From assembly GCA_010015585.1 (NCBI GenBank), contig ML975179.1: a stretch of DNA of 64,000 nt; one strand, 5' to 3'. The notes below the pieces were generated by a model. That model worked only from the letters and a program-made list of their open reading frames with translations, was not told the DNA's origin and searched no databases. Of this stretch, positions 58,060 through 61,306 are shown in pieces (the stretch's first letter is position 1; each line of letters begins with the position of its first letter). The position numbers were made by a program, and so were the translations under genes. The stretch is from Eremomyces bilateralis CBS 781.70 (Eukaryota).

Positions 58060-58300
58060 TCCTCCGGGGGAGAAGAAATTGAGTTACCTTTCTTGGCATT
58101 CCCCTAAGCACAGTTCCCACGATCTTAACCAGAACGCGGCGGAGAATTCACCAAAACAGGCCTCTAGTAGTTGCTTAATTAGGAAAAGAGCATACTTTTT
58201 GGTATTATGTTGTTTTTGAGCGAATTGGGCCTGTCTGTAATGGTGGTGATGGTTGCGGGAATGCCAAGAAACGTAACTCAATTTCTTCCCCCCCGGAGGA
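58060..58300. mobile_element. MITE-like element with 44-bp terminal inverted repeats
   Basis: 58060-58103 is the reverse complement of 58257-58300 with 2 mismatches; about 150 bp non-coding core; no clear target-site duplication. Confidence 0.6.
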
Positions 58301-58652: not shown

Positions 58653-59763
58653 ATGGCCGACTCACCAGCAGCCACCAACGGCACCGACAAGCCTAAGAAG
58701 ATCACCTTTCGCTTCTGTCAAGAATGGTCAGTCCTCTTTCCGCACTCCCATGCAGTCTGCTAACATCGTTCTTCTCTTCCCCAGCTCGAACATGCTCTAT
58801 CCCCACGAAGAGACGTCCACGAACAAGCTCCTCTTCCAGTGCCGCTCCTGCCACTGGAAGGAAGACGCCCCCATCTCCGTCATCTACCGCAACGAAATGA
58901 GCAACACGGTGGGCGAAACAGCCGGCATCACACAGGATGTCGCCCAAGATCCCACGGTTGGTGGTTCCCGCGGTTCCCACACATCTTCCTCTTCCCCCAG
59001 CAACCCTGTCCCCAACGACTCTGTGCAAGGCGCGCGGCTTCTCTCTCCCACGTCCATGTCCGCCGACCCCTCCTCCGACTTCCCCCCGCTCAGTCCCCTC
59101 CTCCGCGCGCTCCCCCTCGACACGCCCGACTTCTGCACGATGTGCGGACAGGAGATCTTCTGCGTGACATGCGGCGAGGAGGTCGAGACGGGGTGTTTCC
59201 TCGAGACGGAGGAGACTGAGGCAGACTCGGTCCGCACCCTGGCGGCGATGTCGGGCGAGCGGACGATCGGTTACGACTGCCTGCCCGACGCGTTGCGATC
59301 GTCGAATTTAGATACCGAGCGAATGGAGGATTCCTGACCGCGAGAGACCGACCACGAAAGAACCATCCCGTATTCGCCCGAGAGAGAAGCCACGCCGTCT
59401 ATACACACTTCGTTCTATACCCCTTATTAAACACTGAGTTACCTCTTGTCATGATGAGTCCCTTACTCTCTACTATATTTGATGCGTTTATATGCGTTTC
59501 CGTCTTCGTCTTGGTTTGATAAGGCAATTTCGGCAAACGCTGACTTCTGTTGGTTTCGGATTTCTAGCTCCCCCGAGTCACGAAACCGTGCCCGAATTGC
59601 CAGGAGACCGAGGCCGTCTTCTTTCAAAGTCAGCAACGGACCGCGGAGACAGGGATGGTGAGTCGAAGTCCGAGCGATCTACCCTAACAGATGTCCTAAT
59701 GCTAGCGGATAGAAACTGTACTTTGTCTGCTGCAGCTGTGGACACGTGTGGCAAGAGGCCTAA
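58653..59763 (+). CDS. RPB9: RNA polymerase II subunit Rpb9 (canonical spliced form)
   Basis: Exons 58653-58726, 58785-58956, 59568-59657 and 59713-59763 give FRFCQECSNMLYP..CRSC..DPT|LPR..CPNC..EAVFFQSQQRTAETGM|KLYFVCCSCGHVW. Confidence 0.95.
58957..59337 (+). CDS. Putative alternative terminal coding segment of RPB9 within intron 2 (CxxC-x6-CxxC)
   Basis: In frame with exon 2 and stop-free for 126 codons; contains DFCTMCGQEIFCVTCGEE; TGA at 59335-59337. Confidence 0.6.
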   Translation, partial: VGGSRGSHTSSSSPSNPVPNDSVQGARLLSPTSMSADPSSDFPPLSPLLRALPLDTPDFCTMCGQEIFCVTCGEEVETGCFLETEETEADSVRTLAAMSGERTIGYDCLPDALRSSNLDTERMEDS

Positions 59764-60057
59764 ATCACGAATCGGGCGTTTTGGGGTTCGGGGTACCGGG
59801 ATAGCGGATGGCATGGAGATTTTGGAAGATGGATCCAAACATTCATAATGCCGATGGCGGCATCGAACGTAGTTCCAACATACCCGCGATTTTTTGTTTC
59901 CGGAGTCTCCAGGAAAAAGCACCGGCGCATATGATGAAGCGACTCCACATAGCATTTGGATAGGAGTTGATATAAAATCCAAATCAATCCCTTTTCTATA
60001 TATACACATCTTTCCGTTAACGCCGTCCATGCGAAACCTTCCTCTCCCCTCCCCGCA

Positions 60058-60658
60058 CTATAAATGCATTGGCGCCAACGACAAAATCTTCGACCACCCG
60101 TTCTTCCTCAACTCCGCTCCCACGATCCCGCTGATCCGCGTCCCGATCGGCTCCCCGGTCTTGTTGATCAGCACACATGCATTGTCGTCGAAGCGCACGA
60201 CGCTGCCGTCCTTCCGCTGCATCTTGGAGCGCGTGCGCACGACGACGGCGTGGCGGATGTCGCCGCGGCGGACCTTGTTGGCGGCAGAGACGGAGACGCT
60301 GCCGCCGGATTCGGGGCCGAAGGAGCGCTGTTTTTGGACGACGACGATGATGCGATCGCCTGGGGGTTGGGGTTAGTCGGGGGCTCTGGAATGGGACGAG
60401 ATTGTGGGAGGATAGTGGGAGAAGACAAGAGGGCATGGCGGTAGGAAAGCATCGGAGGACTCGATCGCATGGGTCCGGGCCGGGGGGAGATGAGTACATA
60501 CCGATTTTCGCAGCGCGGTGCATCTTCAGGACTTTGACGCATTCGACAATGGCGGCGCCGGAGTTGTCAATGCAGTTGACCATGGTCTAGAGAGATGTTA
60601 GTTGTCTAGAGAGACATAAGGTGCAGGAGAATGGGAAACGGACCTTGAGTTGGATCAT
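60058..60658 (-). CDS. MRPL38: Mitochondrial ribosomal protein uL14m
   Basis: [55 protein letters not shown]; two introns. Confidence 0.92.
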
Positions 60659-61306
60659 CTTGACGAGTGCGACAACCCTCCTTGAGGGCCAGTCCTTCCT
60701 CTGTCAACTATGCACGGGTTGTGAGGGAATGCGATCTTGAGATGGGCGATTAAAGGTGGAGAGTGGGAATAACATTTGATATCAGATTGTTGCAACCATC
60801 GTGCAAGGACCCCATGCGATCCATCTCGTGTTGAGCCTGAGGCTGTCAGGCTGCAAAGAACGACCCTTGGTTCCCAGCCCCCGAAGCTTCCAATTCACAG
60901 CCACGATGGACGATGACAACTGAAGAGTGAATGTCGGATTGGCCAATCTTCTTCAATAGTAATTCCCCAAGGAGTCTCGCCGTGTTCATTCTTTTGCGGC
61001 CTTCTCTCCGACCACTCTCTCCACACTCCCCAACTTTCCATTTCTTCCAATCGTCCAATCGTCCCTCAAACCGTCCGAACATGCTTGGTCCCTTCGCGCC
61101 GTAGCCTTGTTCATGTGCTGCTTCGTACTCAACCCCCGTCGACGTCACTGCCATTCAGCTTCGCGCTGTTGAGTTCGCACACCGACAACCGGTATTGAGG
61201 GCGTGGAGATTGGATGGTGTGCATGAGGTGCATGAGAAGGAGCTACAGTCATTTCTGAATTCTATCGCTACGGTTATTTATTGCACCTGAATAAACAGCC
61301 GCGGCC

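Follow-up and report, generated by a model that had tools for sequence, protein, structure and literature searches.

Intron 2 of RPB9 in Dothideomycetes as a conserved coding sequence for a probable second Rpb9 with a four-cysteine knuckle

In the fungus Eremomyces bilateralis CBS 781.70, the gene RPB9, which codes for a subunit of RNA polymerase II (Pol II), quite probably encodes two proteins, the canonical Rpb9 and a form in which intron 2 is retained and which ends in a knuckle of four cysteines (Cys4) and an acidic tail. The gene is located in a stretch of 64,000 nucleotides (nt) of contig ML975179.1 (assembly GCA_010015585.1), which is called the window here. Comparison with related sequences indicates that intron 2 is protein-coding and under purifying selection across the class Dothideomycetes, to which E. 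bilateralis belongs, and it is very likely that unspliced intron 2 yields a second Rpb9. An original prediction, made from the letters of the window alone, had placed an alternative zinc-ribbon C-terminus within this intron. Rpb9 influences the choice of transcription start sites and fidelity, as well as the TFIIS response and transcription-coupled repair, and in yeast its N-terminal zinc ribbon (N-ribbon) together with the linker and its C-terminal ribbon (C-ribbon) have separable roles. To our knowledge, each core subunit of Pol II is regarded as having a single form in fungi.

Results

The reading frame of RPB9 exon 2 continues into intron 2

Exon 2 of RPB9 (58785..58956, plus strand, as are all features of the gene) codes for the remaining part of the N-ribbon and for the linker up to residues D-P-T, as judged by translation and Pfam PF02150, and is followed by intron 2 (58957..59567; GTTGGT...TCTAG). 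Translation from exon 2 into the intron bears out the 126 stop-free codons that had been predicted (58957..59334), and these code for a Ser/Pro-rich spacer, a Cys4 core and an acidic tail. The predicted TGA stop is present as well and occupies 59335..59337, not 59337-59339, the position 59337 given in the prediction being that of its last base. The core is a knuckle of the type CxxC-G-x4-CxxC (59134..59172), and no other part of the extension is as conserved; a four-cysteine module had been predicted correctly, with a wrong spacing, since a CxxC-x6-CxxC pattern was matched by 0 of 61 related proteins and CxxC-x5-CxxC by 51 of them. The extension corresponds letter for letter to residues 83-208 of a deposited E. 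bilateralis protein of 208 amino acids (P0001), which bears the name of a hypothetical protein. The remaining 230 nt of the intron (59338..59567) are non-coding, have a GC content of about 0.46 and contain an ATTAAA at 59426-59431, which had been announced near this position and is found 89 nt 3' of the alternative stop, and a branch-like CTGAC at 59540-59544, located 24 nt 5' of the intron 2 acceptor.

The proportion of G and C (GC) at the first, second and third codon positions is 0.586, 0.562 and 0.795 in the extension, compared with 0.512, 0.457 and 0.752 in the canonical coding sequence, in agreement with the earlier remark that third positions are C/G-rich as in coding sequence. Overall GC falls from 0.63-0.68 before the alternative stop to 0.42-0.46 directly after it. 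In 20,000 simulated first-order Markov sequences, at least 126 stop-free codons arose by chance in 1.9% of cases with the composition of the whole intron and in 7.4% with the composition of its GC-rich part. Length alone thus makes the open frame only mildly unusual, which is weak evidence, and it is codon periodicity together with conservation that carries the case. An open reading frame (ORF) of 201 amino acids on the minus strand (58702-59307) was also considered and rejected, as its third positions are the first positions of the sense frame, with a GC of 0.586, and the periodicity belongs to the plus-strand frame.

Frame, motif and splice-site layout are conserved in related loci

Metagenome contigs were scanned independently of annotation, and at all 49 loci obtained the ORF carrying the cysteine motif is continuous with the exon 2 junction. 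Intron 2 is thus open, in frame and conserved, as a translated retained intron should be, at 49 of 49 loci and in the window, which together contain 45 distinct extension sequences. Complete extensions vary from 35 to 126 codons and intron 2 from 207 to 611 nt, spacers in the relatives have 5-73 residues, and the tail between stop and acceptor measures 30-145 nt in the relatives (30-31 nt in six distinct loci) and 230 nt, the longest, in the window. Intron 2 starts with GT at 45 of the 49 loci and with GCAAGT at the other 4, and a GTAAGT or GTGAGT donor occurs in 0 of 50 cases when the window is included. The layout common to the Dothideomycetes consists of a sub-consensus donor, which doubles as Val-Gly/Ser codons, followed by the coding part of the intron and by a short non-coding stretch that contains branch site and acceptor. 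Canonical exon 3 was found downstream at 40 of the 49 loci and exon 4 at the same 40; among the other nine, L017 is cut by the end of its contig, L010 has diverged and seven contigs end before exon 3 could appear. Both C-termini are therefore kept side by side in the same loci. The original prediction had named a lack of conservation of frame or cysteines in orthologous introns as a ground for its refutation and had proposed a test for a ratio of nonsynonymous to synonymous substitution rates (dN/dS) below 1; the outcome is clearly the opposite of a refutation, with the frame continuous at 49/49 loci.

Two lineages differ in their details. In the lineage of L001, L003, L005 and L006, intron 2 is of the GC-AG type (GCAAGT; junction near L006:2977) with exons 3 and 4 intact downstream, and the GC of the donor is also read as part of an Ala codon within the extension. 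In the lineage of L009-L011 and L021 (L010:1290-1500), canonical exon 3 has diverged, its usual F-F-Q-S-Q-Q-R stretch having given way to other residues, and exon 4 has changed too, whereas the extension encoded in the intron is still well conserved; the relative weight of the two C-termini may have changed in this lineage.

The intron-encoded peptide is under purifying selection

Nei-Gojobori counts were pooled over ten non-overlapping pairs, and all pairwise values were computed as well. For the whole extension, 186 synonymous differences (sd) at 522 synonymous sites (S) and 154 nonsynonymous differences (nd) at 1974 nonsynonymous sites (N) gave a dN/dS of 0.17. The value is lowest in the Cys core (0.054) and higher in the spacer (0.32) and the tail (0.24), and exon 2 gave 0.035. 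Synonymous divergence (pS) hardly differs between the extension (0.357) and exon 2 (0.350), and the constraint therefore acts on the peptide and not on an RNA element. Purifying selection on the peptide encoded by the intron, the second property of a translated retained intron, is thus evident.

Distribution of the extension among proteins

When P0001 was used as query, 61 relatives were recognized among 296 candidates. The read-through junction D-P-T/S-V is present in 59 of the 61 and the CxxC-x5-CxxC motif lies beyond it in the 51 mentioned above. The ten without the Cys4 motif comprise two canonical models (P0029, P0031), two sequences truncated within the motif (P0048, P0057), a further two with little sequence past the junction (P0053, P0060) and four variants (P0025, P0028, P0030, P0039). 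A word-indexed search with the extension alone recovered only itself, 1 of 33 candidates, and relatives were reached via the full protein, phmmer or a profile. With phmmer, the extension alone gave 17 matches with E <=0.001 among 1.84 billion representatives, all of them centred on the Cys core; 7 were already in the set of 61, and the 10 new ones are linked to Rpb9 or are fragments whose first residues belong to the motif or lie just ahead of it. A profile built from the extension only matched 160 proteins, 111 of which were new, and among these 111, which had not been selected for the motif, it is present in 110, the exon 2 junction in 107 and the canonical C-ribbon signature in 0. None of these searches found the Cys4 module in another protein context. 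The named species with the extension belong to the Pleosporales, Botryosphaeriales, Mycosphaerellales, Trypetheliales and Eremomycetales, all Dothideomycetes. In alignments A3 and A4, the rows of which were chosen for the cysteines, with G, T, P and E forming no part of the selection, the residues C, C, G, C and C are invariant.

The four variants are read-through forms of a Lecanoromycete type and include one from Imshaugia aleurites. These forms have lost some or all of the Cys motif, and they share an acidic motif that persists farther along the tail. As judged by these forms, the coding intron may predate the Dothideomycetes and may be evolving differently in lichen fungi.

Extensions of the Mycosphaerellales/Cladosporium type possess a second conserved motif, E-(Q/R)-R-E-R-A-x-S, in the tail close to the C-terminus (loci L027, L034-L037 and L041-L048; proteins P0018, P0084, P0088, P0111, P0157, P0163 and P0178). 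A read-through Rpb9 of 229 amino acids with the fungal Cys4 motif (P0015) is deposited under the name of the tree Carpinus fangiana and most likely represents a contig of a fungal contaminant or endophyte in the plant assembly.

Canonical splicing and retention of intron 2 in RNA of E. bilateralis

Only one public run, here called X1, contains this stretch. Its record does not state RNA, and it was taken to be spliced RNA because its contigs show GT..AG joints at the introns of RPB9 and at those of a neighbouring gene on the minus strand. All three introns of RPB9 appear as such joints. Exon 1 (58653..58726; translation, splice model and RNA joint 58725>58784) extends from the start ATG at 58653 to the first half of the first CxxC of the N-ribbon, and intron 1 (58727..58784; donor GTCAGT) is skipped by a joint of 58 nt in a contig with a depth of 1828. 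The removal of intron 2 is seen in the joint 58955>59567 (GT..AG, depth 1828), which agrees with the predicted length of 611 nt and weak donor GTTGGT. Exon 3 (59568..59657) codes for the first half of the canonical TFIIS-type C-ribbon, intron 3 (59658..59712; 55 nt, donor GTGAGT) is removed by the joint 59656>59712 (depth 998), and exon 4 (59713..59763; splice model) supplies the second CxxC of the C-ribbon and the TAA stop at 59761-59763. The spliced product has 128 amino acids and contains both domains of a canonical Rpb9, the N-ribbon PF02150 and the spliced-on C-ribbon PF01096. Exon 3 alone matches PF01096 (E 1.9e-8, 34.5 bits, cut-off 21). The PF02150 assignment was precomputed for the deposited protein P0001, and a translation of exon 2 plus extension that leaves out exon 1 gives a partial PF02150 match (E 0.0024, 18.2 bits, cut-off 25.2).

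Besides the spliced contigs, a contig of 520 nt with a depth of 281 is colinear with 59077-59596 and so runs from intron 2 past the ATTAAA and across the 3' splice site to 29 nt inside exon 3. In the depth bins of run X1, no contig depth was found over introns 1 and 3. Among the introns, it is therefore intron 2 whose sequence is selectively found in RNA, with a depth that, as a very rough estimate, lies between one sixth and one quarter of that of the exons. The major mRNA form is the canonically spliced one, and retention of intron 2 is partly supported. Of the two routes that the original prediction had offered, retention thus receives part of its support from the contig joining intron and exon 3, and polyadenylation at the ATTAAA is unsupported, as this contig continues into exon 3.

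An independent transcript starting at about 59077 was considered and rejected, as the first in-frame ATG is located inside the first CxxC and the corresponding Met is Leu in many relatives.

In six metagenome- or run-derived proteins (P0007, P0011, P0017, P0022, P0039 and P0111), exons 1 and 2 are joined and intron 2 is read through. P0007, P0011, P0022 and P0111 stem from short contigs (743-1612 nt) that might be cDNA with intron 2 retained, which is only a hint, because P0017 (12 kb) and P0039 (19.6 kb) demonstrate that intron 1 can be absent from genomic DNA.

The Cys4 module has no significant match to a zinc-ribbon family or fold

An AlphaFold2 model calculated with 60 aligned relatives reached predicted local distance difference test (pLDDT) values of 92-96 for the N-ribbon, 75-82 for the 20 residues around the Cys motif and below 60 for the remainder. 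When the extension was modelled alone, pLDDT values of 70-87 were obtained over the Cys core only, and the rest was predicted to be disordered. A Pfam search with the extension gave no match above the cut-offs, the nearest being DZR, at 15 bits (E 0.028) with a cut-off of 27.3, and Zn_Ribbon_1, at 14 bits (E 0.044) with a cut-off of 25. A profile search of PDB sequences with the module found no significant match (best eS27, E 0.33), and Foldseek found no match in fold between the model of the extension and the PDB (best E 4.9). In the ESM Atlas, only clusters of the Rpb9 N-ribbon (scores 0.79-0.83) and models resembling zinc ribbons, with template modelling (TM) scores of 0.25-0.30, were encountered, which are leads only. 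With hhalign, the module and the canonical C-ribbon show no detectable relation (probability 0.6%), so that there is no support for the idea that the module arose as a duplicate of the C-ribbon. The predicted "zinc-ribbon" C-terminus can thus be upheld as a module of four cysteines, and its label as a ribbon is unsupported, as neither a family nor a fold was matched and a relation to the canonical C-ribbon was not detected. A Cys4 knuckle with disordered, acidic sequence on either side is the description that fits best, and Cys4 knuckle is a safer name than zinc ribbon.

Surroundings of RPB9 in the window

On the minus strand, a gene for a ribosomal protein of the L14p/L23e family (60017-60700; PF00238, E 8.6e-32), with two introns backed by the RNA joints 60358>60501 and 60586>60644, converges on RPB9, and the stop codons of the two genes are about 250 nt apart. 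About 350 nt 5' of the RPB9 start codon, a 51-nt inverted repeat was found (arms 58060-58110 and 58250-58300, 90% complementary, with 139 nt between them), which resembles a miniature inverted-repeat transposable element (MITE). RNA contigs over this repeat have identities of 95-99%, with G>A and T>C differences and loose ends at 58060/58088 and 58299/58301, and therefore derive from copies of the element transcribed elsewhere in the genome.

Discussion

A second product of RPB9

The results argue that two proteins are quite probably encoded by RPB9 and suggest how the second would come about. When intron 2 is spliced, the Rpb9 of 128 amino acids with N-ribbon, linker and TFIIS-type C-ribbon is formed. 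A fraction of the transcripts would keep intron 2, and on these the ribosome would continue from exon 2 into the intron. The second product would have 208 amino acids and consist of the N-ribbon, the linker to D-P-T, a disordered Ser/Pro spacer, the CxxC-x5-CxxC knuckle and the acidic tail. As the layout shared by the Dothideomycetes is held by purifying selection, the second protein would therefore be made and used, and plain retention is the route that fits all loci. Because the part that anchors canonical Rpb9 is shared, the isoform would most likely be found at the Rpb9 site on Pol II, docked via N-ribbon and linker. In such a Pol II the C-ribbon would be missing, and a zinc knuckle with an acidic tail would instead be tethered near jaw and funnel.

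Several points weigh against this interpretation. The boundary between exon 2 and intron 2 is unbridged in RNA, as no contig of run X1 covers 58956-59076, and contig depths are a poor measure of the ratio of isoforms, the contigs showing neither the ends nor the strand of the RNA. The stop of a retained mRNA is located 5' of the exon 3-exon 4 junction, and nonsense-mediated decay (NMD) linked to the exon junction complex could keep the protein scarce. The binomial p of 2e-42 against neutrality for the extension is optimistic, as are the other p-values of the dN/dS analysis, since pairs from one clade share ancestry, and the direction of the effect is not in doubt. In view of the lack of a match in Pfam, among PDB sequences or among PDB folds, zinc binding and function of the module are read from the motif alone. 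Finally, the incorporation of the isoform into Pol II is purely inferred.

An isoform that functions off the polymerase, as a soluble competitor, as a chaperone-like assembly factor or as a binder of partners via knuckle and acidic tail, is the alternative that survives best, and we regard it as a tentative possibility. The extension starts inside the conserved linker motif D-P-T-L-P-R, which we take to be important for the contact between Rpb9 and Pol II, so that docking may be weakened, and the spacer is disordered and can be long. However, the entire N-ribbon and most of the linker are common to the isoform and canonical Rpb9, and the N-domain of Pol III C11 plus linker is described as acting on its polymerase by itself (PMC8501072).

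It is unlikely that the alternative C-terminus arises mainly from intronic polyadenylation at the ATTAAA (59426), with intron 2 serving as part of a composite terminal exon. The distance of this element from the stop would suit such a site, and a like layout of four sense codons, stop and poly(A) site is described for yeast FES1 (PMC7491326). However, the sole contig containing intron sequence passes through 59426-59460 into exon 3, even if contigs do not reveal RNA ends, and the tails of only 30-145 nt in the relatives, at the lower limit in six distinct loci, leave little room for a poly(A) site.

A further alternative, which we consider highly unlikely, is that retention is regulatory and unproductive only, so that the weak donor would tune Rpb9 output via an NMD-prone form and the peptide would be functionless. 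Donors are sub-consensus in all 50 loci, the alternative stop lies 5' of a spliced junction, and the retained form is minor (contig depth 281 vs 998-1828), as expected from this explanation. It does not, however, need an open frame of 35-126 codons at every locus, and it leaves unexplained both the low dN/dS of the core, which coexists with a synonymous freedom like that of exon 2, and the invariant C, C, G, C and C. Regulatory retention may coexist with a functional protein. An open frame arising by chance in a GC-rich intron and spread by gene callers that favour long ORFs can hardly be entertained, for even though frames of this length occur in 2-7% of simulated sequences and many database entries are naive ORF calls, some of which read through intron 1, the raw DNA refutes it, as all 49 loci contain the frame and the motif and show purifying selection.

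Comparison with known systems

Two proteins from one gene by way of an unspliced in-frame intron are known from yeast, where the retained intron of FES1 contributes four sense codons with a stop, and so an alternative C-terminus, and also contains a poly(A) site, and where the unspliced mRNA of PTC7 adds a transmembrane helix (PMC7491326). RPB9 resembles both in this principle and in its long evolutionary conservation, and resembles FES1 in that the retained intron supplies an alternative C-terminus. In contrast to both, RPB9 codes for a core subunit of Pol II, the lineage is within the Pezizomycotina (Dothideomycetes) and the intron encodes a structured and strongly constrained Cys4 module within an extension of 35-126 codons; unlike in FES1, an intronic poly(A) site is unsupported. 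The type of mechanism is thus known from FES1 and PTC7, whereas gene, lineage and encoded module differ. Conserved alternative splicing of old origin that gives two functionally distinct proteins is also described for fungal SKI7/HBS1 (PMC3597508), an unrelated gene family in which alternative 3' splice sites are used and not, as in RPB9, a coding retained intron.

The nearest relative of the second form is canonical Rpb9/POLR2I itself, which is encoded by the same gene and has the same product of exons 1 and 2; the second form lacks PF01096 and carries the disordered spacer, the CxxC-x5-CxxC knuckle and the acidic tail instead. That a changed C-terminal module on a common N-ribbon anchor can alter the behaviour of a polymerase has precedents in A12.2 of Pol I, C11 of Pol III and archaeal TFS, paralogues whose C-terminal ribbons do not all have the same action at the active site. 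Among TFS paralogues, TFS4 is reported as an inhibitor (PMC5715097), and for C11 an independent role of N-domain and linker is described (PMC8501072). These proteins are encoded by separate genes and possess true TFIIS-type ribbons, whereas in RPB9 the swap would be brought about by splicing within one gene and would bring in a non-TFIIS module. By analogy with the C-terminal modules of A12.2, C11 and TFS4, it can be speculated that Dothideomycetes run two kinds of Pol II, in the second of which the tethered Cys4 knuckle with its acidic tail would reach the funnel or secondary channel, or the jaw at the downstream DNA, altering backtracking, cleavage, fidelity or the access of TFIIS. The cell would adjust the ratio of the two kinds by regulating how often an intron that is weak on purpose is retained. 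In this full form we consider the proposal rather unlikely.

A description of a second Rpb9 isoform was not found in the literature on Rpb9 splicing and intron retention in fungi, supplements being outside the search. The introns of S. pombe rpb9 are discussed elsewhere only in relation to expression level (PMC13300194).

Significance

The deposited RPB9 model is the read-through form without PF01096 in E. bilateralis and in about two dozen named Dothideomycetes, and among the 61 relatives only Aulographum hederae and Tothia fuscella have canonical models. In orthology tables and domain censuses, such species would therefore be counted by mistake among those lacking a complete Rpb9. For E. bilateralis, the public model represents the minor read-through form, whereas RNA shows the canonical splice as the major one. 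If two proteins are indeed made from RPB9, the largest class of fungi, which includes many crop pathogens, would possess either a regulated Pol II of distinct composition or a new factor derived from Rpb9.

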